NCBI GenBank assembly: GCA_038087875.1
Contig: CM075989.1
Coordinates: 22,384,001-22,448,000, forward strand
DNA length: 64,000 bases
Direction: 5' to 3'
Origin: Malacoraja senta
Taxonomy: Eukaryota
The translations under genes were made by a program, and so were the position numbers. The notes under the pieces are model-generated. The model saw only the letters and a program-made list of their open reading frames with translations, made no database searches and was not told where the DNA came from. This document shows positions 3,415-59,100 of this stretch, piece after piece. Each line of letters begins with the position of its first letter. Within the stretch, counting starts at the first letter, position 1.

Positions 3415-3773
3415 TGCAGACACTAAATGCTGGAGTAATTGGGACAGGCAGCATTGTGTGCAGGAAAGAACTGCAGATGCTGGTTTAAATTGTAGGTAGA
3501 CACAAAATGCTGGAGTAACTCAGCGGGACCGGCAGCATCTCTGGATAGAAAGATTGGGTGAAGTTTCGGGTTGAGGCCTTCTTCAGTCTGAGGACCAACA
3601 TTGGTCTGTGCAGACCAATGGACATCTGCACACTAGTTCTTCAGCCTGAAGAAGGGTCTCGACCCGAAACGTCACCCATTCCTTCTCTCCAGAGAAGCTG
3701 CCTGTCCTGCTGAGTCACTCCAGCATTTTGTGTCTATCTTCAGTGTAAACCACAACTGCAGTTCCTTCCTACA
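3415..3773. mobile_element. Inverted pair of Penelope-like pseudo-LTR units
   Basis: Minus unit ~3458-3588 and plus unit ~3642-3773 are reverse complements; same unit follows GIY-YIG remnants at 12.6 and 43.6 kb. Confidence 0.8.
3646..3673 (+). ncRNA. Minimal type I hammerhead ribozyme motif (PLE-associated)
   Basis: ctgaaga-a-gggt(ctcg)accc-gaaa-cg-tc; core intact, stem I weak. Confidence 0.6.
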
Positions 3774-4180
3774 TTTTTCTACTGTGCACATGGGGTGAAA
3801 ATGCTGCGTTACTTCTTTCAATGTTCCATCGGTTTGCTATATGCTGGAATGCAGCCAAATGTTTCTTCAATGTCTTAGTGCCACATTTCTTCGAAACATC
3901 ATTGTCATTCATGCTGGAAGGCAAGAAAGAAAAAATATTGCACTTTCTTCATTGATTGCTGTTCAGCGAATGTTAACTTGTCAAAACGATACTAAAGTAG
4001 GGTCTATATTTTAACAAATGTTGATTTGGATTAATCCAGAAGAAGTTTCAGAAACTTGCGCATAACTGAGTCAAATTTCAATCTATACCTATTTATGTTT
4101 TCTGACGGAGAAACAAGCCAGAAGCCCAGGGTTGTGAGTTTATACTGTTCTGGTCAGTTGTGAACTAGAATTATTTCAAG

Positions 4181-4590
4181 TCTAAAGTAGAGATACAGCA
4201 TGGAAACCGGCCCTTCAGTCCACACTGACCATTGATCACCCGTTAACACTTGTTTGCACTCACTCCCTGCACATTAGGAAGCATTTTACAGAGGCCAATT
4301 AGCCTACAAACCCGCACTTATTTGCGATGTATGAAGAAACTGGAGTACCACCGAGTCTGTGCCGATCAACAGACATCTGTACACCAGTTCTATCCTACAC
4401 ATTAGGGATAATTTACAGAGGCCAATTCACCTACATACCTGCACATCTTTGAAATGTGGGAAGAAACCAGAGCATCCGGAGAAAACTAGCATGGCCACAG
4501 GTAGAACGTGCAAACCCCACACAGATAGCACCTGAGATCAGTATCAAACCTGGGTATCTGGCACTGTATCAACTCTATCAGCTGTGCCAT
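4181..4590 (-). mobile_element. HE1-like V-SINE (two partial copies)
   Basis: Reverse complement of V-domain and CR1-like tail, duplicated. Confidence 0.7.
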
Positions 4591-5002
4591 GTAGAAACCA
4601 TGCTGTTTGCCCGATTTGACATATTGACATTTTGGCAGGAAAATAAACATGAGATCTACTATTTGATGTAAATACCATACTCATTAACTCATGTCCTTCA
4701 GAAAAGAGAAACTGCCAACTTGCCTGGTCAGGCCTAGAAGGGAACCCAGTCCTGCATTGTGAGGTCAAATGTTAATACCCACAGTGCAAACAGGCAAAGG
4801 TAGAACTAAGTACAACAAAACACAGAAAATCTGAAATAAAAACCAAAATAAAACTGGAACTATACAACCGGTCAGGTAGCACCTGTAGAGAGAGAAAGAG
4901 AGTTAATATTCCAGGTCAATGGCCTTTCATCAGCTAAATCTTTGCAGCAGGGTTGATGCTAATTCATATTTGTGGCATATATATATATATATATATATAT
5001 AT

Positions 5003-5445
5003 TTTTACATTTATTTATTAGAAGTACATTACATTACAACCACATACATTAGTACTCGTCACTTATGTCTTCTTACAATTAATGTACTCCATTTGTTTTT
5101 TACACTAGTAAAAGGAAAGGATAAGATTGAAAGAAAGAAGAAAGTGAAGGAAAAAGTGAGAGTGTAGAAAATGTGACAACAAAAAAGGACGAAGACCCTA
5201 TAAGAACAAAATTAAAAACAAAAGACAAAGAGTTAAGAAATAGACCCTAGAAAAGAAGGAGAAAGAGAAAAAGGAAAAAGAGAGAAACAAATATTTTTTA
5301 TGAGCATTACGCAAATGGGACATACCAACTCTTCAACTATCATCCCCCATTACCTGACCTCAATTTTTATTAAGGTACCTTTGCGCCCTATATTTGTAAT
5401 AATTCTATAAATGCAGACCACGTCAGGTGGAAGTGATCTGGTTTA
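5003..5445 (-). mobile_element. L1-clade 3' end fragment
   Basis: Minus strand reads ..DHFHLTWSAFIELLQI* then pyrimidine-rich UTR and tacttctaataaa tail, as in the L1 at 1.6 kb. Confidence 0.7.
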
Positions 5446-5458
5446 CATATATATATAT

Positions 5459-5497
5459 AAGCTGGTTATTGAACAATAAGAAGAAGAAATACATGTG

Positions 5498-5565
<68 letters not shown>

Positions 5566-5604
5566 CACATGTATTTCTTCTTCTTATTGTTCAATAACCA
5601 GCTT
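5459..5604. repeat. Perfect 146-bp palindrome with (AT)n centre
   Basis: Arm aagctggttattgaacaataagaagaagaaatacatgtgtaaa and its exact reverse complement flank an (AT)n run at 5501-5562. Confidence 0.97.
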
Positions 5605-5607
5605 TAT

Positions 5608-7284: not shown

Positions 7285-7379
7285 ACATATATATAACACT
7301 TAGTTTCTGAAAGATCATTGTGCCAATGGCTCATATAACAAGTGTCGGCTCAATGAGTTATTAATTTAATTATAGGGAT

Positions 7380-7543
7380 ATGTAGGAAGAAATTACAGAT
7401 ACTGGTTCACACTGAAGATAGACACAAAATGCTGGAGTAACTTAATGGGACACGTAGCATCTCTGGAGAGAAGGAATGGGGGACGTTTCGGGTCGAAACA
7501 CAGGCCTCAGTCTAAAAAAGGGACTCGACCCGAAACGTCACCC
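7380..7543. mobile_element. PLE pseudo-LTR inverted pair (truncated)
   Basis: Minus unit ending gacgtttcgggtcga, then plus-strand gacccgaaacgtcacc. Confidence 0.75.
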
Positions 7544-7544
7544 G

Positions 7545-7965
7545 TTAGAATTTAGGAGATTGAGAGGGGATCTTATAGAAACGTACAAAATTCTTATGGG
7601 GTTGGACAGGCTAGATGCAGGAAGATTGTTCCCGATGTTGGGGAAGTCCAGGACAAGGGGTCACAGCTTAAGGATAAGGGGGAAATCCTTTAAGACCGAG
7701 ATGAGGAAAAACTTTTTCACACAGAGAGTGGTGAATCTCTGGAACTCTCTACCACAGAGGGTAGTTGAGGCCAGTTCATTGGCTATATTTAAGAGGGAGT
7801 TAGATGTGGCCCTTGTGGCTAAAGGGATCAGGGGGTATGGAGAGAAGGCAGGTACGGGATACTGAGTTGGATGATCAGCCATGATCATATTGAATGCCGG
7901 TGCAGGCTCGAAGGGCCGAATGGCCTCTACTCCTGCACCTATTTTCTATGTATCTATGTATCTAT
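7545..7965 (+). mobile_element. Young CR1 3' fragment
   Basis: EFRRLRGDLIETYKI..RTRGHSL..VVNLWNSLP..GYGEKAGTGY*; nearly identical to 59837-60245; (tatctatg)n tail. Confidence 0.95.
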
Positions 7966-9391: not shown

Positions 9392-9568
9392 GTGTAGGAA
9401 GGAACTGCGGACGCTGGTTTATACCGAAGATAGACGCAAATTGCTCGAGTAACTCCGGGACAGGCAGCATCTCTGAAGGAAAGGAATAGGAGACATTTGA
9501 GGTTGGAACCCTTCTTTAGTCTGAAGAAAGGTTCTGACCTGAAACATCGACTATTCCCTTCCTCCAGG
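9392..9568. mobile_element. PLE pseudo-LTR inverted pair
   Basis: ..cccttctttagtctgaagaaagg.. symmetric junction near 9520. Confidence 0.75.
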
Positions 9569-9639
9569 TATGTGTACATTTCATCCAGCACAATGTGCTG
9601 AATGGCCTTTACATGCAAGAGGTTTCCCTAACCCAGAAT

Positions 9640-11475: not shown

Positions 11476-12536
11476 TAACCTTGACTCTTTGAAGATGTTG
11501 GTGGAGAAAATATCAAAATAACTCCTTGCCCTTCTGTCGAAGAGTTAGCGATTTGCAACCTGAACATTCCTGAATCCCAGGATGAAGGTCTTAAGTCAGG
11601 AGTGTTGTACTTGGAAAATAAATGTTTAACAACAATGGAAAATATTTATTGGCCTGGAAATATTTCCATTTAAAATGATTAAAAGCAATTAGCATGATGC
11701 TTTGTTAAATATAAAACAAGTATTAATAGATTTTTTGTTGCATATATAGCTTGCCTTTGATTGCAAACCTGAAGTGTTATAGATCTGTGATGAATTGCAT
11801 TCATATTTTCCATACTGTTAAAAAGACTAGTATTCGTTTTACAGATGGAACTGGAGCCACGATGTCTAGAAAAAAGAGTTGAGAGGCTGATGATAATCCT
11901 TAAGTGCAGCAATTGCAATTTTATAACTAGCATCCCAGGGGTCTTGTACAGTACTGCAAAACTTCTAAATTGCCATTTTGGGTTAGGAATGTCACAGGAA
12001 GTCACAATTAAGTGGTCTGATACCTCTGCATCTATGCTATGCATCACTGAAGATAGAAACATTGCCTAAAGCCTCTGCAGTTACAAAAAATAGTCAATAA
12101 AAGAAGGATCCATGAAATATTGATCAGAGCCTCGCTGGCTTTTTGGTGTTAGGAATAAAAAACAAGGTGAAATCTAGATTTAATAGTCCTGTCCTCCTAG
12201 GATTGTATGTGGTGCTATACAGCACATTATTGCACAGACCAAACAGCACCTTTTTGACATCCTATAAATAAAGAACCGCCGCTCTTGTCAGCAACATCTA
12301 TTGATTATTGGAGCAATTAGCTGCACTCAGTATGTTAATCATATGTGCTATAACGGTCTGGTTAATTGTACATCATTATCTCACACCTTGTATTTTACTA
12401 TCTTGCTGATTATAATATAATTTGTTTATGTTACAATTTGCCTTTGGATAATTAAGATAGTGAAAAACTAGGATATATTTTAGAACTGTTAGAATTCAAT
12501 ATAGGGCCAGGAATCAGGAGTATGTAGACATCTAAA

Positions 12537-12977
12537 AGCAGAGAGTAATTCAGAGGGTCAGGCAGCATCTCTGGAAGACACAGAAAGATGGCATTTCAGG
12601 TCGGGACCCTTCGTCAGACCAGTTGTAGTGCGGGGAAGCAATCTGGAGAAGAGGTGAAGGTGGGGCAACGCCCGGCAAGTGATAGACCGATACAGGTGAG
12701 GGGGGAGCTTGTTTGACCGATGAATGGACAAAGGCCAGAAGATGAGAAGAAGATAAAAGGCTGTGAGATAAGGAGAGACAAGAAGTGAAATATGAAGCCT
12801 GTGGAAGGGATATAGATGGAAATGGAATTAGCAGGAAATGGGAAAGGGTAGGGAAATGGAAGACGTGTGTGTGTGCATCAGGTGGGGCACAGGGAAGAGA
12901 GGGGGGAGAAAGAGGAAGTGGGTTGGGTGTTATCTAAAACTGAAGAAGTCAATGTTCATACCGTTGGGTTGTAACCT
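12537..12977 (-). mobile_element. Penelope-like element 3' end (GIY-YIG C-terminus, UTR, pseudo-LTR)
   Basis: Minus strand RLQPNGMNIDFFSFR* (ends 12930) matches LHPSGMNIDFSNFR* at 43.5 kb; degenerate hammerhead ctgacga..gaaatgcc at ~12590-12617. Confidence 0.8.
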
Positions 12978-13009
12978 ATACACCCTAACGCACATATGTG
13001 CGTGTATGG

Positions 13010-13571: not shown

Positions 13572-13583
13572 AAAAGGTTGTGG

Positions 13584-13716
13584 GTCTGATGAAGGGTCTT
13601 GACCCAAAGCTTCACCTACAGTATTCCTTCTCTCCAGAGATGCTGCCTGACCCATTGTGTTACTCCAGCATTTTGCGTCTATCTTTGGTGTAAACCAGCC
13701 CTACAGCTCCTTACAC
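13584..13716 (+). mobile_element. PLE pseudo-LTR unit (degenerate hammerhead)
   Basis: gtctgatgaagggtcttgaccc..ctccagagatgctgcctgacc..ttactccagcattttg. Confidence 0.8.
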
Positions 13717-15162: not shown

Positions 15163-15292
15163 GTCTGAAGAAGGGTCTTGACCCAAAACGAAACCCATTC
15201 CTTTTCTCCAGAGATGCTGTCCGACCCACTGAGTTACTCCAGCTTTTTGTGTCTACCTTTGGTTTAAATCAGCATCTGCAGTTCCTTCCTAT
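15163..15292 (+). mobile_element. Solo PLE pseudo-LTR unit
   Basis: Full unit; imperfect 12-bp flanking duplication gtcYtcacYatt. Confidence 0.8.
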
Positions 15293-17618: not shown

Positions 17619-18068
17619 GGCGGCATGGTGGCGGAGAGGTATGGTTGCTGCCTTACAGCGCCAGAGACCCAGGTTCGATCCTGGCTATGGGTGCTTGTCT
17701 GTACGGAGTTTGTACGTTCTCCCCGTGACCTGCGTGGGTCTTCTCTGAGAACTTCAGTTTCCTCCCACACTCCAAAGACGTATCAGTTTGTAAGTTAATT
17801 GGCTTGTTATTAAAATAAATGTAAAAAATGTCTGAAGAAGGGTCTCGATCCAAAACATCGCCCGTTCCTTCTCTCCAGAGATGCTGCCTGTCCCGCTGAG
17901 TTAATACAGCATTTTGTGTCTAATTTTGATTTAACCCAGCATCTGCAGTTCCTTCCTACACATAAAAAATGTTCCTAGTGTAGGATAGAGTTAGTGTGTG
18001 GGAGTCACTAGTCAGCGCGGACCCGGTGGGTCTAAGGGCCTGTCTCCACGCTGTATCTCTAAACTAAA
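17619..18068 (+). mobile_element. HE1-like V-SINE interrupted by a PLE unit (17830-17962)
   Basis: SINE halves rejoin across the insert; 10-bp duplication taaaaaatgt at 17822-17831 and 17963-17972. Confidence 0.9.
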
Positions 18069-20380: not shown

Positions 20381-20849
20381 TACTGAACTTAAATGGAAAG
20401 TAATCCATGCTTAGGATCCACTCTACACCTTCCTAACCCTCAGCATTTTTAAGAAAACCTTCCCGAAACATTTCTCTGCTGAATATTTACCAGAAAACGA
20501 AAAATAAAAACAACTGCAGATGTTAGAAAAGTAAAACAAAAAACAGAAAATGCTGGAAACACTCAACCAATCAGGCAGCATCTGTGGAAAACCACTGGCC
20601 TAATGTTTGATGTTGAAGATGCTTCATTGGATAAATAAATATTTGCATCGTCGCAGGATGTTTGAATATAACGATTAATTCTGTTTCTCTCTCCACAGAG
20701 ACTGCCCGACCTACTGAGTGTTTTGGTATTTTGGGGGGATTTTCAGAAGTATCTTGCGTCAGATGATGATGTTAAAGATGATATTAAAAAGCTGTTTATA
20801 TTAGAGATGAGTTGATCCTTTCCAAGATTAGATTTTTTTTGGACTCATT

Positions 20850-22320: not shown

Positions 22321-22717
22321 TTGGACTTCAATGTTTTTTTTGCACTAAATGGTGTACCTTTGATCGTTTATCTGTGTACTGCGGATAGCTTGATTGCATT
22401 CATATATATAGCCTTTTCTTTGACTGGATAGCATGCGAACAAAATCTTTTCACTGTCCCTCAGCAAACATGACAATGATAAACTAAACTAAATTAAAAAT
22501 TACAATAAAATCGCCGCTATTAATTAAGAAAACCATCAAATGAATACAAAATAAAATGTGCACCAATGAGAAAATTAAGTTCAATCTTAAGAAGGGTCTG
22601 AAGAAGGATCTTGACCCGAAACATCACCTATTCCTTTTCTCCGGAGATGCTGCCTGACCCACTGAGTCACTCTAGCAATTTGTGTCCTTCTTTAGTTTAA
22701 CATATATAATTTCAACA

Positions 22718-29752: not shown

Positions 29753-30600
29753 ATTATACGAAACTTCGATATACGTAAATAATTTAAATGGTATTTTCAC
29801 ATATCTAAATTAGGTACAGTAAATAATTCTGGCAATTGCAAGCAGTAGATGATGTAATAAATCAGCATAGAGCCATGCAGCATGGAATCAGAACCTTCAC
29901 CTCTCCAAGTCCACACCAACCATAAAGCACTGTGTGTACTGATCCTAGTCCAGTCCCAATTTTTTCAACCTATTAACTCCCCCAGCTCACATACAGACGA
30001 GGAGCAATTTACAGTGGCCAATTAACTGGCCAACTTGCACGATTCCGATCTTGGTAATGCAGGAAGAAACCATTCCACTGATGGAAACTGGAGACAAGAG
30101 GCAGATGGATCAGCCTGAAGTAGTGTCCCGACCCCAAATGTCATCTGTCCATTTCTCACCACAGAGTCTGCCTGGCCCGCTGAGTTCCTCCGGCACTTTG
30201 TTTTTTTGCCTGAAGGAAAGGGATATAATTACAAGTGAACTCCACACAGACATCACTGGAGCTGTGATGCAGATGTTCTACAATGTGCCATCCCATTTAG
30301 ATTATTATAGATCCTGGTTAGTTGGAAAAGAAAATACGTTCAATTATATAAAGATCTGGTTGTGAGAATAGAAGCATTCTTCCATTTGTTTTTTAAATAT
30401 CTAGTCTTCAACAGTCTAGTTCCAAGGAAATCAATATGCCTTTCTCCTTTTTCAAGTAGAGTTATTAGAGGAATGCTTCTTCTTCTATTTGCTACATCGT
30501 AGAACATAGAAGAGTAAAGGAACAGGCCCACCTCCCCACTGTGTCACAATGTAAAGTTAGACTCCTCTGCCTGCACGTGATCCCTAGCTCTTCATTTCCA

Positions 30601-30807
30601 AAAATAGACACAAAATGCTGGAGTAATTCAGCGGGACAGGCAGCATCTCTGGAGAGAAGGAATGGGTGAGGTTTGGTCTCAAGAAGGGTCTCGAAACGAA
30701 ACATCACCAATTCCTTCTCTCCAAAGATGCTGCCTGTCCCGCTGAGTTACTCCGGCACTCAGTGTCTATCTTCATTATAAACCAGCATCTGCAGTTCCTT
30801 CCTACAC
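30601..30807. mobile_element. PLE pseudo-LTR inverted pair
   Basis: atagacacaaaatgctggagtaa..ttactccggcactcagtgtctat arms. Confidence 0.85.
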
Positions 30808-31150
30808 ATTCCTCCAAATCCATGTGCCTATCTAAAACCCTCTTAAACGCCAACATTTTATCTGCTTCCACTGTGGTTACAGGAATGAAGAATATTTGGT
30901 GAAAACTCTTCAATATAATTCTAATATAACTAGCATTGTTGTGCAAATTGGGGGAGCACAGAATTCTTCAGCGTGGTGGATCAGGTGCCAATAAAGCAAG
31001 TAACATTTTCCAACAGGACATCAAACATCTTGTGTGGGATTTGCTTAAATTATAAAAGGTGCCACATTCTTTCCCCAAGACACGATTATGATTCTATTCC
31101 AGACCTATTTTGTTATTTGAACCTGAATACATTTGTTCTATTTCCTCCGT

Positions 31151-31452
31151 AGATAGACACAAAATGCTGGAGTATCTCAGCGGGTCAGGGGGCATCTCTA
31201 GAGAAAAGGAATAGGTGATGTCTTGGGTCTCGACCCGTCTTCCGATCGAGAAGGGTCTCGACCCGAAACGTCACCAATTCCTTTTCTCCAGAGATGCTGC
31301 CTGGCCCGCTCAGTTATTCCAGCATTTTGTGTCTATCTTCTATTTAAACCAGCATCTGCAGTTCTTTCCTACACTTGCTGCCTGGCCCGCTGAGTTACTC
31401 CAGCTCTTTGTCTCTATCTTCGGTGTAAACTAGCATCTGCAGTTCCTTCCTG
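31151..31452. mobile_element. PLE pseudo-LTR inverted pair with tandem duplication of the 3' half
   Basis: Arms 31151-31220 and 31250-31373; 31376-31452 repeats the 3' part. Confidence 0.85.
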
Positions 31453-32364
31453 CTTATTTTCTCCAATTTCTTATTTCCCTGCCCTATTGATAAAATATAA
31501 GAGACGGTGAATGACATGATAGTCATCTAATGCCTTGTGGGGCTGTATACTGATTCTATAAAAGGAATTTGAGAAATCCCAATCTTTTGTCACAACATTT
31601 TACAAGTCCGCAAACTCACAGTTAATTCAATAGAAGTTGTTTAATGTTTTGAGATTTTACTAGTATTGATTTCCATTTCCACAAGGAGTCAAATATCAGG
31701 AAAGAATTGATAAGGGATAACATATCACATGCAGTAGATTAAGACATGCTTCCTGTCCATGGAGACCAGTGTCCTTTAAATAGTTCCTTGGCCAGTTGTC
31801 CTGTCACTTTCAATAACACCCGATCAAGATCGAAGAGCTCCTGTTACATGGTGAAAGAAGTAACAGTAATTGAGAAACAGCCTTAAGTTTCAGTCCAATA
31901 CCAGAATTTTCTATAGATCTGAAGCTTAATTCCTTTCAAGCGCTTATCAGTATACCACCTTTGAAGAACGTTTGGTGAAAGCTCTTCAATATAATGTTTT
32001 ACTCGTGGTACAAACAGCATCATCCATTGTATTATAACTTTAATCCTTGTAGAATCATTCGATATTAATTTCATGATTTGTACATATTCATATTTGATAG
32101 ACACAAAGTGCTGGAGTAACTCAGCGGGTCAGGCAGTATTATACCCGTCCCGCTGAGTTATTCCAGCACCTTGTGTCTATCTTCGGTGTAAACCAGCATC
32201 CAACACATCATTCTTATTTGCTTTTTCTCCATATTAACTTTTGAATCAATTTTTTATTACTTTGAAGAACCGTTGTACTTTTTAAAGTTTCCTTGACAGT
32301 GTTTATGGAACTTTTCCTGTCATGAATTAAAATTCACAAAATAAATGTGTGCATATGGAACATT

Positions 32365-33915: not shown

Positions 33916-34181
33916 AGATACTGGCGCAAATTACTTCCTAATTTTATCATGAACTATTACATTTAACAAGTCAATACAGTAATTTATTTCAATAGCAGCA
34001 TTAATCCATGCTCTTAAAAAACACAGCGACGCCAATATATAGAACACAGAGCAGAAAAGCACAAGAACTGATCATTTATATTTAGGAAAGAACTGCAGAT
34101 GCTGGTTTAAATTGAAGGTAGACACAAAATGTTGGAGTAACTCAGCGGGACAGGCAGCATCTCTGGAGAGAAGGAATGGGT

Positions 34182-34209
34182 GACGTTTCGGGTCAAGACC
34201 CTTCTTCAG
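34182..34209 (-). ncRNA. Minimal hammerhead ribozyme motif (PLE unit 34083-34210)
   Basis: Reverse complement = ctgaaga-a-gggt(cttg)accc-gaaa-cg-tc. Confidence 0.6.
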
Positions 34210-34713
34210 ATTGTTCAGGTTTACGAGGATATTGACAGGACTCAAGGGCCTGAGCTCAAGGGGGAGGTTGGGCAATCTAGGACTTTATTCCTTGTTCAAA
34301 AGTTGATAAATTCCTTGTTCATAAGTTGATATCCTTGTGTTCTTGATTTCCCCCACCCTGGGTAAAAGACCCTGGGCATTCACCCCATCTATTTCCCTCA
34401 TGGTTTTATGCATCTCTGTAAGATCACCCCTCATCCTACTATACTGGCTGTGGAGGCCGTCAATGGGTATTTTTAAGGCAGAGATAGATTCTTGATTAGT
34501 ACGTGTGTCAGGGGTTATGGGGAGAGGGCAGAAGAATGGGGTTGAGAGGGAGAAACAGAACAGCCATGATTGAATGGTGGAGTAGACTCGATGGGCCGAA
34601 TGGCCTAATACTGGTCCTCGAGCTTATCAACTTATGAACGTCCTAGAATGTCCAACTTCTCCCTTGAGCTCAGGCCCTTGAGTCCTGTCAATATCCTCAT
34701 AAATCTGAAGAAT

Positions 34714-34741
34714 CTGAAGAAGGGTCTCGACCCGAAACGTC
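34714..34741 (+). ncRNA. Minimal hammerhead ribozyme motif (PLE unit 34712-34793)
   Basis: Intact core; 3' strand of stem I deleted. Confidence 0.5.
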
Positions 34742-35151
34742 TCTCCAGAGATGCTGCCTGTCCCGCTGAGTTACTCCAGTATTTTGTGTCTATCCTCGTA
34801 AATCCTCTCTGCACTCTTTCCAGCAGAAGTTGTGGACGGACGTGTAAACTCCCATCTCCAGTTCCGACAAGCCTTCTCCAATCTAATTACCATCATTTGA
34901 TCTTCTTTCTCACAATCAGTGGCCATTCAGAACCAGTCTCCAATGTTAATAGCATGACAGCAATGCACTAAGGAGTCTCAGGTTACAAGACAGACCCGTC
35001 ATCCCACCAGCTTCCCTGAACACATGTTCAGCCTGCATGTCCAAAAAATAAGGAGAACTGAGCTGCCAACAAGACAGTGGTGACAAACACTCTTTAGGAT
35101 TAGGTGTTAAATGATGAGGCATTTGCAATCCCTGGTGATTAACTAATCACA

Positions 35152-37877: not shown

Positions 37878-38090
37878 TGTAGAAACAAGGAACTGCAGAT
37901 GCTAATTTGCAACAAAAAAAGACACAAAGTGCTGGAGTAACTCAGCGGGTCAGGAAGAATCTCTGGAGAACATGGGTATGTGATGTTTCGTGTCGGGACC
38001 CTTCTTCAAACTGGCCCGAAACGTTACCTATTCATGCTCTCCAGAGATGCTGCCTCACCCATTGAGTTATTCCAGCACTTTGTGTCTTTT
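37878..38090. mobile_element. PLE pseudo-LTR inverted pair
   Basis: aagacacaaagtgctggagtaactca / tgagttattccagcactttgtgtctt arms. Confidence 0.85.
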
Positions 38091-38278
38091 AAAGATCAGC
38101 CTGGTCAGGCTAGTCATCCTATCCTGGCAAACATCATACTCATTGCGAAATAGCACAGGTACTTTCATGTACAATTCATCTTAGTGTGCCTGGTAAACTT
38201 TGAGCATTAGAGGTGCCTTCGCTCCATAGATGCTGCTGCACCCGCTGAGTTTCTCCAGCATTTTTGTGTACCTGCACC

Positions 38279-40714: not shown

Positions 40715-40805
40715 AAAAATATATACTGGTTTATACCAAAGATAGACACAAAATGCTGGAGTAACTCAGTGGGTCATGCAGCACCTCTGGAGAAAAATAA
40801 TAGGT

Positions 40806-40833
40806 GACGTTTCAGGTCAGAACCCTTCTTCAG
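40806..40833 (-). ncRNA. Minimal hammerhead motif (PLE unit 40725-40836)
   Basis: Reverse complement = ctgaaga-a-gggt(tctg)acct-gaaa-cg-tc. Confidence 0.5.
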
Positions 40834-41527
40834 ACTATATAAGGGACACTTATACCAGGTAGTCTATTCATCCCAATATGGTTTTATAATGAACATATTA
40901 TATTACATGTAGGGTTTTTTTGTCACAGCAAATTTTCACCATAGTCAGGAATGGCACCAACATCAATGAAAGGATGATTCTGTTTATTTTCCCAACACAC
41001 CATTGGCAATATATTAATACTCAATCTTTGTTGAAGATTTTCAGTTCCTTCTCTCCTGAATCCTGAAACATTATTCTGGAGCAGTGTCCCATGCAACATA
41101 GTGAAGTAATGCATACGTTAACTAATATAATACTGGAAGGGAATTTAATTCTAAACAGTATTTGATGAACAAAACATTAGCTTAACACGAGGCCAAGTCA
41201 TGTCTACCAATTTGTTACTTCACGCGATGATCACAGAATCGGAACCCTGGGATCTCAAGGAACATGTTGTAGACACAAGGTACTTCCTTAATAATGAGGA
41301 GTGCAAAGTATTCCAAGTTGCAAAGAGACAACTAAAGGATTTACCATTACAGAAGTACTAAGATGGTGTTGGCTAGGTAAGCAGTTATTGCCATTCCTGT
41401 ATAGGAAGGAACTGCAGATACTGGTTTAAACCAAAGATAGACATAAAATGCTGGAGTAACTCAGCAGGTCAGGCAGCATCTCTGGAGAAAAGGAATAGGT
41501 GACATTTCGGGTTGAGGTAATGCCAGT

Positions 41528-41555
41528 CTGAAGAACGGTCTCGACCCGAAACGTC
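41528..41555 (+). ncRNA. Minimal hammerhead motif (inverted PLE pair 41400-41617)
   Basis: agt-ctgaaga-a-cggt(ctcg)accc-gaaa-cg-tc-act; 3-bp stem I, one stem II mismatch. Confidence 0.5.
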
Positions 41556-43299
41556 ACTTATTCCTTTTCACCAGAGATGCTGTCTGACCCGCTGAGTTAC
41601 TCCAGCACTTTGTGTCCAGTTTAAGGTGCTATTCCTTTTCAGATTTGTATATTCATTTGCCCCATCATTTACTAAAGTCGTAAGTAATCTTATTGTTGAA
41701 TATGCATGGTGACCAATCACCCTTATCTAACTATCTCCGGCTTAAAAGCTTTCAAGTACTTCTGTCCCCCTTTGAGGAAAGAGACTTCCAATATTCACGT
41801 TCCTCAAGAAAAAAAAAAGTAAGCTTATCCCTATCTAAATGTGCCACCCTTGCGTCTTACACAGTCGCTGCTTCACATACAAGAGGAAACATCCTCTCCA
41901 CGTTCACTCTGTCAAGACCCCTCAGTATCTTTATATATTTCAATCAAGCCCGCTCTCGCTTTCCTAAGCTCAGCACAAAAGGGGCCTCCTCATCTCCTTC
42001 AGTCCGTGCAGTCTCTGCGCCCGATCTTTCCCCTTCATCCGCTGCCAGTTCATTAACACTTCTCAATTCTGTACCGAGCTGGTATCTTCTGTTCATTTCA
42101 AAAGCAGGAAAGGTCTTAGCATCGCGCGCCTTCAATCACGCTGCCAATCCAGCCTCTCCGCCGCCACTCAAAATGGATTTCCAAATCCTCCTCTGAGTGT
42201 AACTCTTTAAAAAGATTTCATACGCAGCAGGGGTGTTGCAAACATTGAGAAGGTTGGGTGGTGGGAGGAGGGGTTGGGGCTGGGGGGGGGGGGGGGAGGT
42301 GGAGTTGCATTTCCCAACAAAAAAATGCCAGATTTCCATGACATCAATTGAAGGTCAAGGTTCAATTTTCACTCCCTTTGAAAAGACAATGGGAGTCTTA
42401 ACTTACTGTCTCCCTTCTATGCACCCCGAAGACCCCATGCTTTCTTGGTATAGATATGCTAAGGACATTGTGTAGACTAACAACAGTGATGTCTTAATGC
42501 TACTCTGAAAATTTGGCAATCACCATTGATTTATAAAAAATATATAAAAGCAATGTGGGCATTTTACAAGCAAGGAGGTCAGTGAAGGATAATTCTTTGC
42601 CAATGTTAGCATCGCTTTCCCAAGCTCAAGATATGAATAGTTGGACATCACTTTACTTTTTACATATCAATTCCTTTTTTGTTTTCAACCCAGCTTTGAC
42701 AGCTTAATAAGCCTGTTGTTTTGCCATCAAGCCATTTTCTTTTCTAGAATTTTCTAAGAGACACGAGTGGTGGTAGCATGGTTTGATTGTCAATTGGGTC
42801 TGCGCCACATTGCTGAAGCATCCAAGGCAAAGTTCCACAGAGATAGATGCAGACCATCGAACCATTGAACAAATGTTACAAGGTCATTCTAAAACTCGGT
42901 TTGGGACAAATTCAAAAGCAAGTACAACTCTTCCCTGATTAAAGTTGCGATGTATTATTAACAGTTTCTGTCTCCACAGAGTACTCAGAGTATTCCCACC
43001 ACTTTCTGCTATTTAGTTTGCTTCTAACATCTACAGTTTATTCCTTTATAATTATTTCCTTCTCTTTACAACAATACAAAAAGAAGCCAATGAGCTCATG
43101 TGAAATTAATTCTATTGCTTCCTTCAAGTTTCACCTCTTGAGAAGGTTGCGTTTGATTATAGACCTCTTCTCCTTAAGATAGACACAAAGTGCTGGGGTA
43201 ACTCAACGGGTCGGGCAGCATCTCTGGAGAAAAGGAATGGGTTTCAGGTCGGGACCGTTCTTCAACCTCATCTAATGCATCTGCTGTTCCAGGTGGGTG

Positions 43300-43511
43300 T
43301 CAACTCCGCTCAGTCCGTCTTAAACCAACCAGATCGCCCGGTTGCTCAGCACTTCAACTCCCCCTCCTATTCCCAATCTGACCTTTCTGTCCCAGGCCTC
43401 CTCCATGGCCAGAGTGAGGCCCAGCGCAAACTGGAGGAACAGCACCTCATATTTCGCTTGGGTAGTTTACACCCCAGCGGTATGAACATTGACTTCTCTA
43501 ATTTTAGATAG
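43300..43511 (+). pseudogene. PLE GIY-YIG endonuclease C-terminal remnant
   Basis: PVAQHFNSPSYS..DLSV.GL.H.....QRKLEEQHLIFRLGSLHPSGMNIDF*: VA.HF, R..E..I..L..P.G.N pattern of PLE endonucleases. Confidence 0.85.
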
Positions 43512-43622
43512 CCCTTGCTTTCTCCCTTCTTCCCCTCCCCCTTCCCAGTTCTCCCACAAGCCCTACTGTCTCCGCCTACTTCCTTTCTTTTTCCCGCACC
43601 CCCCCCCTCCCCTGATACCAGT

Positions 43623-43650
43623 CTGAAGAAGGGTCTCGACCCGAAACGTC
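43623..43650 (+). ncRNA. Minimal hammerhead ribozyme motif
   Basis: ctgaaga-a-gggt(ctcg)accc-gaaa-cg-tc, ~110 nt after the GIY-YIG stop. Confidence 0.65.
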
Positions 43651-44619
43651 GCCAATTCCTTCACTCCATAAATGCTGCCTCACCCGCTGAGTTTCTCAGC
43701 ATTTTTTGTCTACCCGGTTTTTCCAGCATCTGTAGTTCTTTTTTAAACAGGCAGGTGGGACCAGAGTAGATGGGGCATGTTGGCCAGTGTGAGCAAGTTG
43801 GGCCAAAGGGCCTGTTTCCATGCTGTCTGAATCTATGACTCTCTATATCCTGAGAGGTTCTCATGCCTGCTTTCCCAATCAGTCATCGTGGCTGGAAAAG
43901 GATCAAAATTGGGCCAGAGTTCTCACACACCCAGACCAGTTCTCTGTCTCACCAGTCAAAGGACAACAAAAAATTGGTGCAAAGAAAATTCTCAGGCACA
44001 CAAAAAAAAACCAGCTGAATTTTACATGCTCTCCTAAATTTCTCATTTCCGCTGGTCTCAGCTTTATCCGATAAGACCTGGGCGTCTTTCTAAATTGCCC
44101 CTACAGTGTTACAATATGAGTGGTTCGATATCACTGGCTTTGAAACTCGAGATAGACTGTGGGAAAAGCCACAAGCCAGGGCAAAAATAAAAATCAATTA
44201 AGGGATGAAAAAGCGGTGTAAACACGGTCAGACTCAAAAACCTCACTGTGGTTTTAAAGAGTCCTGTACATTTGGTTCGATATAATTATTCCAATTTCCC
44301 AAAGAGACTGCAGAGAAACAGTCAATTTAGATAAGGAAACACGTGTTGACGCGTCATTTTATACCCTCTATAAATGGAGCCAATATAATGGATTAAAACA
44401 GAGAATTTATTGGAATTAATCTAATGATGGAAATAAATGTCACAGTAAGTACACGTGGATACAAAGATGAGCGAGCATTGCTTTAAGGCAAGTGGGGCAA
44501 AATGTAAAGGAGATATGTGAGGGAAGTTTTGTTTAAAGAGTATGATGGGTGCCTGGAACATGTCACAAGGGTGGTGGTGGAGTTAGATATGATAGTGGCA
44601 TAAACAAGGGTTTTGGAAA

Positions 44620-44925: not shown

Positions 44926-45279
44926 AAGGAAGGGATGTGGATCATGTGCAGATAGAGGAGATAAAACATGAGCAGGTTAAACATGATAATCGGCAAGGAT
45001 ACTATAAGCCAAAGTGGTTGTGCATGTTCTGAACTGTTCTTCCTTTATGTCCTGTGTTTAAATTGCCGATGTTAATGATACGACAAGGAATTGGTACTTT
45101 CACCCCCAAATTGTATTGATCTGTATATGTGATGCCAGTGTCTTTCTCAGTCAGTGAAGCAGTAATCCAACCACTGGAGTCATAGAGTCACACAGTGTGG
45201 AAACAGAACCTTCGGCCCAACTTGCCCACACTGACCAAGATGCCCTGTATATACTGGTACCACCTGTCTGTGTTTGGCC

Positions 45280-45479
45280 NNNNNNNNNNNNNNNNNNNNN
45301 NNNNNNNNNNNNNNNNNNNNNNNNNNNNNNNNNNNNNNNNNNNNNNNNNNNNNNNNNNNNNNNNNNNNNNNNNNNNNNNNNNNNNNNNNNNNNNNNNNNN
45401 NNNNNNNNNNNNNNNNNNNNNNNNNNNNNNNNNNNNNNNNNNNNNNNNNNNNNNNNNNNNNNNNNNNNNNNNNNNNNNN
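45280..45479. other. Assembly gap (200 N)
   Basis: Run of N; a minus-strand CR1 tail (45178-45279) is cut by it. Confidence 1.
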
Positions 45480-47078: not shown

Positions 47079-47753
47079 CCTAGACTCTAGCAAGATGAGT
47101 TGAAATTAAAGTTTAAATTATAAGGTAATATAACAAGCAGAAAATTCAAGCGATACTGAAATATTGAGAGTTTCACCGGGCTCCAAGATGTAATATCTCC
47201 AGTTAGCTGGCGGATGGCTCCTCTTTGCGGAGATTAGTATGGGTGTCAGGGGTTATGGGGGGAATGGGGTTGAGAGGGAAAGATAGATCAGCAACGATTG
47301 AATGGCAGAGTAGACTTGATGGGCCGAATGGCCTAATTCTGCTTCTATAACTTGTGAGCTTGTGAAGGTGGAGAACTAGTGCCAATGTTTCAGGTCTGAG
47401 ATTCCTGAGCAGGTCTGTTTTTAATGACAGGATATCATATGATTTAGATGAGAATGTACTCATGCTAGTGTTTCCCATATGCCTTTTGCTCTGGTTTCTC
47501 TTGCTGTGGAAGTTTGCGGGGTTTGGGAGACGTTGGCCGAAGAGATATTATTGCAAGATGTCAAATCATCTTCCTGGTGTAAAGGTAAAACACAAAGTGC
47601 TGGCATAACTCAGTGGGGCTGGAGGCATCTATATAGGGAATGGATAGGCAATGTGTTGTATCGGGACCCTTTTTCAAAAGGCTCTGAAATGGATAGACCC
47701 AAAACGTCACCTATCCATTCCCATTACAGATGCTGCCTGAGCCATTGAATTAC

Positions 47754-48040
47754 TTTAGTTTTTCAGTTTTCGAGATACAGCGTGGAAACAAGCCCTTCGG
47801 CCCACTGAGTCCGCACCGACCAGCAATCCCCGCACATTAACACTGTCCTACACACACTGGGGACAATTTACACATACACTAAGCCAATTAACCAACAAAC
47901 CTGAGTGTGGGAGGAAACCAAAGATCTCGGAGAAAACCCACGCGGTCACGGGGAGAACGTACAAACTCCATGCAGACAGCGCCCGTAGCCGGGATCAAAC
48001 CCGGGTCTCCGGTCTCTGGGTCTCTACCGCTGCGCCTCCT
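47754..48040 (-). mobile_element. HE1-like V-SINE (partial re-copy at ~48110-48185)
   Basis: Reverse complement V-domain and tail. Confidence 0.88.
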
Positions 48041-50135: not shown

Positions 50136-50871
50136 CCCTTCAGACGCAGAATCCTGGCCCTGCATATCGTTTATGAGGATGTGGTAACATTTTCTTTCGC
50201 AGTGTGCGGGGATCGCTGGTCGTTGCGGACTCGGTGGGAAGAATGGCCTGTTTCCACGCTGTATCTCTGAACTAAACTACACTAAACTAGTAATCTGAAA
50301 AGTCTCCTCTTGGCCATGATGTTAATTGGAGATAGACACAAAATGCTGGAGTAACTCAGCGGGACAGGCAGCATCTCTGGAGAGAAAGAATGGGTGCTGT
50401 TTCCGGTCGAGACCTAGCTATTTGGAGTCCTGCCTGCAATCTCTGGTTAATATAGCATTGTCTGGCATGGGTATTACGAAAAGTATCAAACCAGTATTTA
50501 ACCCTCTATTAACTTTTCAGAAAACATTCATCTGGTTCTTATTACTTTGCTGTCCATGTGAATTTGTTGTGTACAAATTGGCTGCGATATTTATAACATT
50601 AAACAGAAACTTTGCAGAAGTATTTCATTATTTTTACTGCCTTACAACACAGGTTCCCACTGGGAACATGAAATTGCTATTTACCCTGGAATCTTCTATA
50701 TTAATCCACTATTTTTATTTCTTTATAAGATAGAACTGAATAAGACACAAATATACACACCAGTCATTTCCTTTTTTTTTGTTGGCAGCGCTTTTTACAG
50801 ATGCTTGTACAATCCAAAGAATTCAATTTGGACATCTTCAGATTAAGTACTGAACTAAATCTACAGGGATA

Positions 50872-50964
50872 CAAACATAAAGCTGGAGTAACTCAGCGGG
50901 ACAGGCAGCATCTCTGAAGAGAAGGAATGGTTGATGTTTCATGTCGAGACCCTTCTTCAGACTG
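50872..50964 (-). mobile_element. Solo PLE pseudo-LTR unit with 14-bp flanking direct repeat
   Basis: aatctacagggata at 50858-50871 and 50965-50978; a second minus PLE unit with UTR follows at 50986-51225. Confidence 0.85.
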
Positions 50965-51380
50965 AATCTACAGGGATATCTTGTCGACACAAGGAACTAC
51001 AGATGCTAGCTTAGAAAAACGACACAAAGTGCTGGAGTAACTCAACGGGTCAGGCAGCATCTCTGGCGGACATGGATAGGCAATATTTAGTGTCGGTACC
51101 CTTCTTCGGACTGATTGTAGTAAGGAGGAGAAAGCTGGAAGAGTGATGGGGGTGGACAGGACAAAGCCAGGCAAGTGATAGGTGGATACAGGTGAGGGTG
51201 GGTGTTGACGGGCAGGTGGGTAGACATAGGGTAGTGATGGGAAATATTTATTGTGTTTAATTGGCACGTGCGCACTGCACAGTGAAGTTCTTTTTTGCAT
51301 AACCCACAAATGCACAGTCACCATATTTTGATGTCCGAGGTCCACAGTCCTCATGAGTCATTGTCCTGGATTGCCCGCCA

Positions 51381-51520
51381 CCAAGGTAAGGCCAGGTAAG
51401 GACAGGTACGCCCAGGTAATCCCAGGTAAACTCAGGTAAGCCCAGGTAATCCCAGGTACGGCCAGGTAAGGACAGGTAAGGCCAGGTAAACCCAGGTAAA
51501 CCCAGGTAAGCCCAGGCCAG
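51381..51520 (+). repeat. Minisatellite, 10-bp unit (consensus cccaggtaag)
   Basis: 13 units containing AGGTA plus 1 degenerate unit. Confidence 0.95.
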
Positions 51521-51920: not shown

Positions 51921-51964
51921 CAGTACCTAATGGAAGGCAGTTTGTAATCTCCACAATGCTGTAC

Positions 51965-54565: not shown

Positions 54566-54764
54566 AAAGGGGGATTTGTTTGCTTGTTCATCTGAGCCCC
54601 TGAATTAGATAAGGCAATCAGTACCTAATAGAAGCCAGTTTTTTTTACGAAGTTGAGATCTGAATGGGTGTGTACTCCACATATCTTGGAGTATATGAAG
54701 ATAGCCACAAAATGCTGGAGTAACTCAGCGGGACGGGCAGCATCTCTGGAGAGATGGAATGGGT

Positions 54765-54792
54765 GACGTTTCGGGTCGAGACCCTTCTTCAG
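54765..54792 (-). ncRNA. Minimal hammerhead ribozyme motif (PLE unit 54699-54793)
   Basis: Exact reverse complement of ctgaagaagggtctcgacccgaaacgtc. Confidence 0.6.
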
Positions 54793-55559: not shown

Positions 55560-55890
55560 AGTGTCAAGTCAAGTCAAGTCAGGTTTATTCGTCACATACG
55601 CATACGAGATGTGCAGTGAAATGGAAAAAGTGGCAATGCTTGTGGATTGTGCAAAAAAACCACAAACAGAATGGAACAGAATCACATATTCACATATTAC
55701 ATATTTGTGGGGGGAAGAAACAAGAAAAAAACAGCAATTTTAAAAAGACACAACACAACAGTAAATTGGTTCAGTAAGTGAGTCCCTGGTGAGATAGGAG
55801 TTTACAGTCCTAATGGCCTCTGGGAAGAAACTCCTTCTCATCCTCTCCGTTTTCCCAGCATGGCAACGGAGGCGTTTGGCTGACCGTATG
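55560..55890 (-). mobile_element. LINE 3' end, probably Rex1/Babar
   Basis: (ttgac)n tail; minus strand agtttcttcccagaggccattagg (SFFPEAIR). Confidence 0.65.
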
Positions 55891-56112
55891 GTTTATTGTG
55901 GTTCATTCCACAAGTCAATCTGTAACATGCATTTTACCAAAGAACCATAATAACAAGTATTATTTATTCGCTCCAATAATATGTTCTTCAACACCTTCTC
56001 TTGCTGCACCCTCTCTGTGATTCGGGCTTTGATCTATCTTTTATTAATCTTTCATTAATCTGTTCCATGGAGTTTTTCATATCTTTCGGTCTCCTCTCCC
56101 TTGACTCTCAAT

Positions 56113-56140
56113 CTGAAGAAGGGTCTCGACCGGAAACGTC
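56113..56140 (+). ncRNA. Minimal hammerhead motif (PLE unit 56020-56210)
   Basis: ctgaaga-a-gggt(ctcg)accg-gaaa-cg-tc; one stem II mismatch. Confidence 0.5.
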
Positions 56141-59100
56141 ACCTATTCCTTTTTTCTGGAGGTGCTGCCTGACCCGTTGAGTTACTCCAGCATTTTGCGT
56201 CAATCTTCGGCTCCACTTACCAACAGTTACTACCTTTAGTAGCAAGAACCCTCCGCTGATCATTGAAACATTACATTTTTTACATTTTGCAGCTAGAACT
56301 TATGAAGTTTTTCTTTTGTTAACTATGATAAAGTTTGATTGAACCATCACTGTTATTAATATTGTATTAATGTTTTTTTCGTTCATCTTAAAAAAAAAAC
56401 CTCTGTTAAAGTAACAGATAGGGAATTCAATATGAATGCATTAAAGCTTTAATGTGGTCAGATCATTTTTGGTAACTTCTACCCACCTAATATTTGAGTC
56501 ATACAGCATGGAAACAGGCCCTTCAGCCCAGCGTGCCCATGCCGACCAAGATACCCATCAACTGTACACTAGTCCCACCTGCCCATGTTTGGCCCATATC
56601 CCTCTAAACCTGTTCTATCCTTGTATCTGTCCAACATTAACATTACTTACCTCCTGCAATTATTTTAAAATTCATTAGACAACTTAAATAAATACAAGGT
56701 AGACACAAAATGCTGGAGTAACTCAGCGGGTGAGGCAGCATCTCTGGAGATGAGGAATGGGTGACGTTTCGGGTCGAAACCCTTCTTCCTGACTGCATGC
56801 TTTTGATGGTGTGTCTGGAAAGGTTTGCAAGGGTCATTGGAGACATTCTGAATTTGCTCAAACTCCTGAGGAAGTGGAGGCGTTGGGGCGCGTTTGGCTG
56901 AAGTTGAATCAAAGTGCCAGGTGAAAGGATGAACAGAGCAACCTTTTACAGCCAAGTAAGCAAGTAACAAAACACAACATAAAAATGCCATATAATTTCC
57001 AATCCTTGTGTATGTATTTCTTTCAATGCAATATATGTTAGCTTTGTAATTTATTAGTGGCTGGCTGATCTTAACGCAATGAATGAAAGTGCAGGTAAAT
57101 AAGCCAGGAGCCGATGGACTGAATATCCATGAGCAGAATGCTGGAGTTTGAAATGGCAATGTTAACAAATTGAAGTTCAATGTTTTCACTACTCACTACC
57201 TTTCAGGGGTTTTGGAAGCCACAGATAGCTCTTTGTAAATTGTAATAGTTACGAATGTTGTCATCTTGGGAGTTTGATTTCTCCAACAAAGCTCCAGAAT
57301 CCTGTTGTTGATGTGTTTGTCGGGCGGGGGGGATAATGACTCGCATTTGATTTGTGAAATAGTTCAGCCGCAGAGGAGAGAGGAACAAAAGGAGAGCTCG
57401 CGTTGTGCAATTTGAGGCAGGAATCCCGCGGTGATAAAGGTCTCTGGTGCAGACATTATTTTAGGATAAAATGCTAATAATGGTTTGAGGCTCAGCCTTT
57501 ACTTTGTGCTGGTACTGGGCTGAAAGTTTGCTATTTTCCATTAAGGTTTGCAAACCATTCAACATTATTGGTGCATTATCTCCAAGGAACTGGGTTGGAT
57601 CAATATTGTATTCTCTCTCCCCCATCAGCACCCAGTAGGGGAAGGCAAATGCTGCACTGTGGATTTCAGCACCTGCAAGAACAAATCAATAATCTTGACA
57701 GAGGCAAGCTTTGTTCTATCACAGACACTAGATGTTCGCTGTGCTGTACATGATTGCTTACCAGGTTTGTTTTCTCTTGTGTTATACAGTATGACAAATC
57801 TCCACCCTCTGTCTCTTTCCCCTAATGGCATCAATATAATTGCCTTGACAATAAAGAGCACGGAAAACACACATCTCTTTTGTAAGTTTTTCTATCTTTT
57901 TAAATAACTCCATCAGCCTGACTGCACGTGCAACTTTCTTTTAATATAAGAAATAATTATATCTTGTTAAATTTATGTGTTGTTTTGTGATTACTTTCAG
58001 AGCTGAGACCCACTATTAAGCATTTAAACATCAGTTCAAAAAATAAGACTTACTTTAAAGATAACAAATTTAAGTGAAATGAAGCCTTGCTGTTGTGTTA
58101 TTCTGTGGTCAGAGGGACATTGCTAGTTGATAATGTTGAATCAATGGCCTTACTGTTATTTTGACAAAGTATTTATGCTAAGAAGCCAATACAGAAACTT
58201 GATTTAAATGCAATGCCAACTACATAGTGCTTTGATTCCTGCTTCAACTTCATTTACTTCCAATTAAGACACCATCGACATAAAACCAGTAAATATTGGA
58301 CATACTCAACAGGCCTGGAAGCATCTGTGGTGAGAAATGCAGTTATTGTTGAAGGTCATTGACTCGTTAGTCAAATATTATTGACAACCTAACTGTGGCA
58401 TGTAGATAATAGAGTCATAGTCCTAGAGTTGTGGTGTCGTACAGCATGAAAACAGGCCCTTCGGCCCAACTTGCCCACACCGAACAAGATGCCCCATCTA
58501 CACTAATCCCACTGGCCCATATCCTTCTAAATCTTTCCTATTCATCTACCTGTCCAAATGTTAAATGTCTTAATATCAAAGCTATGCACATACGCCGTAA
58601 AAAGGTTTTGAGGATGAATTATTGAGGATGAATTATTACACATGTGAGTTTTGAGGGTTCTGAATGGCACACTCTTTCACAAATGGGCAGGTGGTGGTGA
58701 CAGGCTGGGCCAGGCGGTTGTTTACACAATTTGTGCAGATCCACTGTTGGGTTTATGTTCAAGTTTATTATTACCATTTGTACCAAGGTACAGGTATAGC
58801 ATGCTATCCAAAGAGATCGGATATACCGTACAGATATACAATCAAACGCAAGTACAATGGATAGAGTCGAGGGGAAGATACAGAGTGCAGAAGATACATT
58901 CTCCGCATTGTAGTGCATCAGTTCCACTGACAAAGTCCAATGTCCATAATAAGGTAGAATTGAATTGGACGGTACCCTGGGTTATGGAAGGACTGTTCAG
59001 AAGCCTGATAGCAGAGAGGAAAAAGAGGGGAAGGACACCCGAGTCTGGTGGTGAACGCATTCACGCTTCTGTACCTTCTGCTGGATAGGAGCAGGAAGAA

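Follow-up and report, generated by a model that had tools for sequence, protein, structure and literature searches.

The stretch analysed here, called the window below, is 64,000 nucleotides of DNA from the skate Malacoraja senta (GenBank assembly GCA_038087875.1, contig CM075989.1, positions 22,384,001 to 22,448,000 of the forward strand), and positions are counted from its first letter. It contains a dispersed repeat beginning with a minimal hammerhead ribozyme motif, which an initial annotation, made from the letters alone, had assigned to the pseudo long terminal repeats (pLTRs) carried by Penelope-like elements (PLEs). Searching with a profile built from 12 copies gave 53 matches in 39 loci (28 on the minus strand and 25 on the plus strand, with no strand bias), and a blastn search with a single copy as the query gave 50 matches. 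The loci are spaced at about one per 1.6 kb and the unit occupies 8% of the window, in agreement with the annotation, which had counted about 40 copies of a ~130-bp unit on both strands at one per 1.5–2 kb. The core region is spanned by 41 of the 53 matches. The five cores that it had named as exact (3646+, 34182-, 34714+, 43623+ and 54765-) were recovered by the core pattern and are its only matches in the window; the pattern had no match in 100 dinucleotide shuffles or in metagenome and viral contigs. The core at 34182- carries a C>T change in loop 2. A descriptor of the minimal hammerhead without stem I detected 7 sites (8 rows), and 30 simulated windows gave 4 matches. Four further copies described as near-exact are all present, but with differences: 40806- keeps the core and stem II with one G-U pair, 10128 has a 1-nt deletion and an altered stem II, and the 10.1-11.1 pair is broken in 41528 and 56113. 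The repeat and its hammerhead motif are real. For a genome that we take to be about 2 Gb, extrapolation from this one window would put the number of units at around 10^6 in order of magnitude and that of complete cores at around 10^5, as an unverified guess.

The link between the unit and a PLE is physical. At 43275-43745, the C-terminus of a GIY-YIG endonuclease, a pyrimidine-rich untranslated region (UTR), the core and the tail follow each other in this order. The parts of this insertion and a second long copy are as follows.

43173..43265, minus strand: pLTR copy in inverted orientation, with no tail and a broken core, at the 5' end of the 43275-43745 insertion (profile).
43275..43511, plus strand: C-terminus of the PLE GIY-YIG endonuclease open reading frame (ORF), 5'-truncated, to the stop codon (homology).
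43512..43622, plus strand: pyrimidine-rich 3' UTR or upstream pLTR segment of 111 nt (pyrimidine fraction 0.84), ending in CAGT.
43623..43650, plus strand: complete minimal core, stem I of 2 bp, predicted cut after 43650 (pattern and descriptor).
43651..43745, plus strand: remaining pLTR and a tail of ~30 nt (profile).
12522..12978, minus strand: second long copy, with the last ~14 endonuclease codons, a ~310-nt pyrimidine-rich UTR, a core with U16.1>C and a pLTR without tail.

The product of 43275-43511 showed 79% identity to a Leucoraja erinacea protein carrying the GIY-YIG motif, 75% to a Rhinoraja longicauda protein and 81%, over 41% of the query, to an Amblyraja radiata protein. It also matched the C-terminus of P0035, an 816-aa protein with reverse transcriptase (RT) and GIY-YIG domains (48% over 50 aa, pairwise E 1e-13). 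The endonuclease fragment alone had no Pfam match; RVT_1 and GIY-YIG were found in six of the seven homologues scanned, some under the curated cut-offs. The second endonuclease remnant lies at ~12930-12978, upstream of copy 12617(-). The annotation had not cited these remnants, and its proposal that PLE pLTRs carry the unit is borne out by them. A CX2-5CxxC linker is present in the homologues P0014, P0032, P0035 and P0038, and the window fragment starts downstream of the linker region. Such a linker is described for both Neptune and Nematis (PMC8557442; the papers cited here are used for the parts of them that were available). Judged from the homologous sequences, the element is likely Neptune-type. 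In the skate homologues, the endonuclease repeat fragment sits inside unrelated predicted proteins: it forms the C-terminus of an annotated skate neuromedin-U receptor 1 (P0003) and an internal stretch of an annotated skate DCC isoform (P0016). These fusions are either exonised repeats or annotation errors.

The majority sequence of the motif consists of CUGAAGA, an extra A, a 4-bp stem II, GAAA, CG and UC, with a stem I of 2 bp. The majority base agrees with CUGANGA...GAAA...UH at every core position, and all 12 bases are kept in 15 of the 41 copies. The extra base between positions 9 and 10.1 is A in 33 of 34 copies; G10.1 is found in 27 of 34, and position 11.1 is C in 23 and T in 9. The palindrome 15.2-16.2 that replaces helix III is ACGU in the majority, is paired in 21 of 31 copies and decays as a CpG. 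The annotation had described a type I minimal core in which A9 is followed by an extra base and stem III is reduced to the palindromic ACGU; both descriptions hold, and the core equals the published consensus (PMC4209133, Fig. S3). Its figure for stem I, 1-4 bp in most copies, has to be corrected to 0-2 bp in 35 of 41. Stem I reaches at least 3 bp in six copies, every one of which is broken elsewhere, and a descriptor demanding this length found no site in the window. The core, stem II and palindrome are all intact in six of the 41 core-spanning copies, and stem I in these complete copies measures 0, 1, 0, 2, 2 and 0 bp. When the covariance models and descriptors proposed in the annotation were applied, Rfam returned no hammerhead family at E<=1 for the window or at E<=10 for 43560-43760, as expected because stem III is lacking, and the seven sites given above came from the descriptor free of stem I. 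Rfam matches to microRNAs and to AEV_CRE were below the gathering scores and reflect hairpins or microsatellites.

Two longer stems were set aside. The 8-bp stem I at 13586 was considered as a sign of an active copy and was ruled out by G12>A and A15.1>G; this copy (13578-13637) has CUGAUGA, its long stem arose with a 5-nt insertion, and it adjoins a ~600-bp (TA/TG) microsatellite. The 4-bp stem I at 22598 is the product of a local duplication. Older, more diverged relatives of the unit lie at 4854-4932, 20511-20743, 28685-28766 and 58287-58336, and in the older diverged copy 4933-, CUGAUGA is retained and stem II is still closed by an A-U pair.

The initial annotation had further suggested that the copies form latent sites able to cut host pre-mRNA, and such ribozymes might act alone or paired with a distant copy. 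The high density, with six complete cores in 64 kb, speaks for this, and a four-base intermolecular helix can be drawn; forcing the dimer gives a predicted energy of -12.7 kcal/mol. A different dimer fold is, however, predicted to be more stable (-21.1 kcal/mol). Stem I measures 0-2 bp in the complete copies. In folds that included 30 nt upstream and 100 nt counted from C3, the predicted probability of stem II, P(stem II), was <=0.09 for all six of them, since their purine-rich core pairs instead with a stretch of pyrimidines just downstream; these folding models ignore tertiary contacts and proteins. For the head-to-head pairs described below, long hairpins are predicted, in which the core is buried. 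The nearest complete partners on the same strand are 6.6-31 kb apart, and the balance of the two strands noted above also speaks against sites acting on host transcripts. A search of 300 of the 309 non-repetitive ORFs of at least 45 aa against Pfam found no host exon, although short exons would escape it; neither ALKBH8_N at 56646-56945(-) nor a sub-threshold DUF7273 match was taken as one.

The decay of the copies points the same way. The comparison was made with 31 copies covering positions 1-86, and CpG bases were treated apart. The non-CpG catalytic bases differ at 23 of 307 positions (7.5%) and the tail 46-90 at 126 of 1325 (p=0.32); without two subfamily columns the tail differs at 100 of 1263 (7.9%; p=0.91). 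The least diverged half of the copies showed no protection (catalytic 9/149, tail 26/613), and G12, which lies in a CpG, is mutated in 8 of 31 copies as compared with 45 of 214 other CpG bases (p=0.64). All five covariation measures were at or below the shuffled mean in the 31 window copies, a set of post-insertion copies mostly of one family that tests the copies and not the source lineages. Thus, the catalytic bases show no excess conservation, in the least diverged copies either, and the 31 copies show no covariation above shuffles, which is the outcome on the sequence side that the annotation had set against its own proposal. Published monomers were inactive and dimers weak (PMC4209133), eight of nine frog dimers were uncut, and the anole element PAc needs its own protein (PMC11167929); on the other side, Xenopus introns contain fewer retrozymes than expected (bioRxiv 2026.07.22.740005). 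With six of 41 copies complete, neutral decay and a fold that is improbable in context, most copies, which are mutated, are likely unable to cut host RNA, and we consider latent cleavage of pre-mRNA very improbable. The head-to-head pairs would form frequent 100-bp RNA hairpins in transcripts crossing them, which may be a likelier host effect than cleavage.

The 5' edge of most copies lies at the core and not at the cut site. The 5' starts reach model positions 1-3 in 33 of the 53 matches, a figure bounded by the profile, which itself begins at C3, and none of the 53 starts at positions 25-33, around the cut site. As the model begins at C3, the upstream sequence was checked separately for the UTR through its pyrimidine fraction. 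A pyrimidine-rich UTR precedes the core in only 5 of 34 core-bearing copies; the other 29 continue upstream into captured sequence, unrelated flank or the arm of an inversion, and GT, AGT or CAGT is often retained. At 17832, a target duplication abuts C3, so this boundary dates from the insertion. Contigs from four runs of other organisms were also aligned to the window (105,103 and 97,436 contigs in the two largest); these data carry no RNA ends, strand or level, and their depth is not a copy number. In the best 24 of 1847 loose 5' ends, positions 43619-43621 were among the commonest, and none lay at 43650/51. As starts at the cleavage site are absent and the whole core is present in most copies, the template appears to have been uncut, that is, the copied RNA was likely not cleaved before insertion. 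The edge of the ribozyme may set the 5' boundary.

Two side observations came from the same contigs. In run X20, 10 contigs show a joint at 43619-43653 going back 35 nt with a few bases between; these are head-to-tail tandem repeats of the core alone in another organism, and a natural dimer candidate. In run X1, a loose end at 43656 marks a subfamily variant with U-G for U-A in stem II around a UUCG loop, and the pairing is preserved.

The absence of the UTR from 29 of the 34 core-bearing copies would also be explained if the unit were a non-autonomous solo pLTR, similar to a short interspersed nuclear element (SINE), whose master copies start at the core from the outset and are transcribed and then copied by the enzyme of the PLE; the start of the master, a transcription start site or splice junction, would then give the 5' edge without any stall. 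The solo with a perfect target duplication at 17832 fits this explanation, as does the end of the UTR, where a pyrimidine tract followed by CAG resembles a 3' splice site; a Drosophila virilis intron is described as ending at the 5' end of helix I. However, the 5' edges are staggered from about -5 to +1 and frequently retain AGT or CAGT, letters that would be lost if splicing occurred after CAG; the contig joints have no GT..AG ends. The solos share no upstream exon or leader, and the long endonuclease-bearing copies have the same core. We regard a SINE-like master as unlikely. The 5' edge as such may be due to the ribozyme fold or dimer, or to the start of a short master element.

The arrangement of the insertions is that of PLEs. 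Close pairs are head-to-head in 10 cases and tail-to-tail in none (p=0.002). In total, 24 of the 53 copies are in head-to-head inversions, which include the 10 close pairs, 34209/34714 and 43265/43623; the initial annotation did not describe these inverted arrangements. The 3' ends (n=53) fall at positions 86-101 in 16 copies, at 118-128 in 24 and elsewhere in 13, so that two clusters lie about 30 nt apart, and in most head-to-head pairs one arm is longer. A 30-40 nt tail on one end together with an inverted 5'-truncated copy, a feature of endonuclease-positive (EN+) PLEs, is thus found in the window. Inverted pLTRs, junction palindromes and a tail on one arm have been described for PLEs (PMC3846280; PMC8557442). 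Of the 13 inverted spans tested, 4 had target duplications at p<=0.05 as compared with random flanks, and so had 3 of 6 spans of other kinds; the clearest is a perfect 10-mer flanking the solo copy 17832. The inverted and paired copies, and then the solo copies, are listed below.

3415..3772, both strands: head-to-head pair of 3460-3585 (minus) and 3646-3772 (plus; complete core, stem I of 0 bp), with a 60-nt captured spacer and a partial tandem piece; one long hairpin fold (z -22).
7382..7546, both strands: head-to-head pair.
9394..9572, both strands: head-to-head pair with a 2-nt junction.
20511..20743, both strands: old diverged head-to-head pair, core unrecognisable.
30597..30805, both strands: head-to-head pair with an overlapping junction.
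31144..31452, both strands: head-to-head pair and a partial tandem piece, with a 9/10 target duplication.
32096..32200, both strands: head-to-head pair whose centre, with both cores, is deleted.
34082..34799, both strands: head-to-head pair of wide spacing; the cores at 34209(-) and 34714(+) are both complete, and their upstream sides share ~100 nt of inverted sequence.
37887..38275, both strands: head-to-head pair and a partial piece.
41402..41624, both strands: head-to-head pair whose arms meet at the core edge, just one of them having the tail, with a 9/10 target duplication around the pair; single-hairpin fold (z -16.6).
47572..47763, both strands: diverged head-to-head pair.
50849..51107, minus strand: the sole head-to-tail pair of core-bearing copies, 149 nt apart; the upstream core has U4>C and G12>T, and stem II and the palindrome are broken in the downstream copy.
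17822..17970, plus strand: solo copy 17832-17959 with G12 mutated and a perfect 10-bp target-site duplication, the left copy of which abuts C3.
15165..15291, plus strand: solo copy with a broken core; a few nt before C3 there is a 10/12 target-site duplication.
40722..40833, minus strand: solo copy, complete core, stem I of 2 bp.
54676..54792, minus strand: solo copy, complete core, stem I of 0 bp.
Other solo copies (profile): 4854-, 6843+, 8845-, 10128+, 13587+, 22598+, 23544+, 23866-, 26604-, 28685+, 30116+, 33589-, 49635+, 50317-, 52518-, 55373-, 56113+, 56687- and 58287-.

Between the inverted complete cores of the wide pair, at 34210-34713, lie ~500 bp with fragments resembling long interspersed nuclear elements (LINEs), possibly sequence captured between pLTRs.

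These arrangements bear on whether the unit is a non-LTR retrozyme, the tandem monomers of which would be cut into circular RNAs. A derivation of retrozymes from PLE pLTRs has been proposed and they are present in one chondrichthyan, and the head-to-tail repeats of the core alone in run X20 would suit them. Only four same-strand adjacent pairs occur in the window, however, none with two intact cores, and starts at the cut site are absent. We therefore give this explanation very little weight.

Taken together, the units are very probably 5'-truncated 3' ends of PLEs, consisting of a pLTR and an optional tail, in which the published minimal hammerhead likely serves the source RNA, and the scattered copies are likely dead and decaying neutrally. 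By analogy with the anole Poseidon study (PMC11167929), the PLE protein would bind its own RNA and nick AT-rich DNA, and two internal sites downstream of the hammerhead would serve as alternative starts of reverse transcription, so that ends arise with or without the tail. The copy boundaries suggest that an uncut template is copied through the core, and that synthesis then usually ends, folds back or switches template 0-5 nt past C3, which would yield the solos and the head-to-head pairs. CAG-N-CTG could offer microhomology for switching at the core edge, and self-priming at junction palindromes was proposed earlier (PMC3846280). In tandem source transcripts, judging from the literature, two cores may pair via ACGU and cut weakly or with the help of a protein. 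After insertion, the catalytic bases and G12 mutate at background rates, as seen in the window copies.

Several points weigh against this reading. The start figure is bounded by the profile, as stated above, and the pyrimidine fraction is an indirect test of the 5' edge. Some loose ends at 43619 are UTR variants, and contig depth differs between the endonuclease (11-18 million) and the core (28-29 million) by a factor of only 2-3, so many copies may run past the core genome-wide. Convincing target duplications were found at no more than the 4 of 13 inverted spans given above. The 64-kb window holds no PLE RT or full-length element, and the clade assignment therefore rests on the homologues. 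Measured against the whole tail 29-90, the catalytic positions are somewhat better kept (p=0.03), probably because subfamilies vary at 29-45, and all 11 catalytic bases are kept in 13 copies as compared with 10 expected, a surplus that could stem from subfamily variation in the tail. With 31 copies, weak selection on the core may have gone unnoticed.

The motif could also be a vestige or parasite that has no role for the source, with the 5' pile-up arising from the low-complexity UTR or from CAG-N-CTG microhomology alone. Naiad PLEs reach high copy numbers without canonical hammerheads (PMC8557442), mutating the hammerhead left PAc insertion in vitro unimpaired (PMC11167929), and the absence of covariation among the window copies would be compatible with such a vestige. 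On the other hand, the same peculiar minimal core is kept across 40 metazoan species, and the old copy 4933- still shows the CUGAUGA and A-U pair described above. A hammerhead without function in the source is in our opinion improbable.

Beyond the preferred reading, in which the hammerhead serves the source RNA of a PLE, the skate motif might act as a boundary or pairing signal in retrotransposition more than as a nuclease, a suggestion that we hold to be quite improbable. Two uncut RNAs would be paired through ACGU and bound by a dimeric enzyme, which would use both nicked strands as primers, one of them at the tail site and the other at the pLTR end; each RNA would be copied through the core up to its 5' edge, and the cDNAs would be joined head to head. 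If true, this would explain why solos and inverted pairs alike begin at the core, and would account for a ~130-nt, ribozyme-tipped unit possibly numbering hundreds of thousands or more.

The window also contains other repeats. An 858-codon open frame at 60372-62948 (-) shows 39% identity to the LINE RT part of P0002 and looks like what we take to be a CR1-type LINE ORF2 with endonuclease and RT. Fragments at 1906-3330 (-), which had no Pfam match, and at 63047-63971 (-) resemble L1/Tx1-type and L2-type LINE ORF2, respectively. A short tandem repeat with a period of ~10 nt lies at 51380-51500, and an assembly gap of 200 N at ~45200-45400.

The window unit agrees closely with the minimal hammerheads of metazoan PLEs (Cervera and de la Pena 2014, PMC4209133). 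Both have CUGANGA, an extra base before G10.1, the G10.1-C11.1 pair, GAAA and UH, and a palindromic 15.2-16.2 without loop 3. In both, the motif lies 3' of the endonuclease ORF and occurs mostly as single dispersed motifs with some opposite-strand pairs, in thousands per genome. The window unit differs in its short helix II (4 bp) and, in the majority, a helix I of 2 bp; published helix I ranges from 2 to 6 bp, the 2-bp cases being the Culex, D. virilis and Oikopleura rows, and Fig. S3 of that paper includes a Neptune example. The part of its alignment that was compared has no chondrichthyan among its species. The density of six complete cores per 64 kb, if typical, would on extrapolation from this single window be far above the 4,000 motifs of coelacanth and 9,000 of Xenopus reported there. 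Thus, the motif, its PLE link, the dimer logic and the mass dispersal were already published in 2014, and are extended here to a skate genome at very high density. A literature search that left most subscription papers, Repbase and Dfam uncovered found neither a report of hammerheads in skate PLEs nor one of 5' ends that cluster at the core; supplements may already list a skate or shark motif.

Penelope elements of Adineta vaga and D. virilis (PMC3846280, PMC2377424, PMC8557442) share with the window copies the head-to-head pLTRs, the junction palindrome, the one-arm tail and target duplications of 8-10 bp. In contrast to them, the junction in the window lies at the 5' edge of the hammerhead, and hardly any copy has an ORF. 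Non-LTR retrozymes (PMC7229834; bioRxiv 10.64898/2026.07.22.740005) are likewise related to PLEs and carry a type I hammerhead in many monomer copies, whereas the window has no tandem array bearing a hammerhead per unit, and its pairs are head-to-head and not head-to-tail.

The role of PLE hammerheads has been called unclear (PMC8557442), and on this question the closest comparison is the anole Poseidon element PAc (Frangieh et al. 2024, PMC11167929), which also has a pLTR hammerhead, two 3' end positions that define the tail, and an uncut RNA template. PAc is a Poseidon-clade element with an ORF that begins within stem II, whereas a Neptune-type cysteine linker is found in the homologues of the skate element and the unit has its first ATG at position 50. 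No mention of 5' ends piling up at the core edge was found in the available part of the PAc paper, which reports that RNA-seq ends at the cut site are absent. A genome dense in short insertions allows copy starts to be counted relative to the cut site, and the lack of starts there, with most lying just before the core, gives in vivo support for the uncut-template result obtained in vitro.

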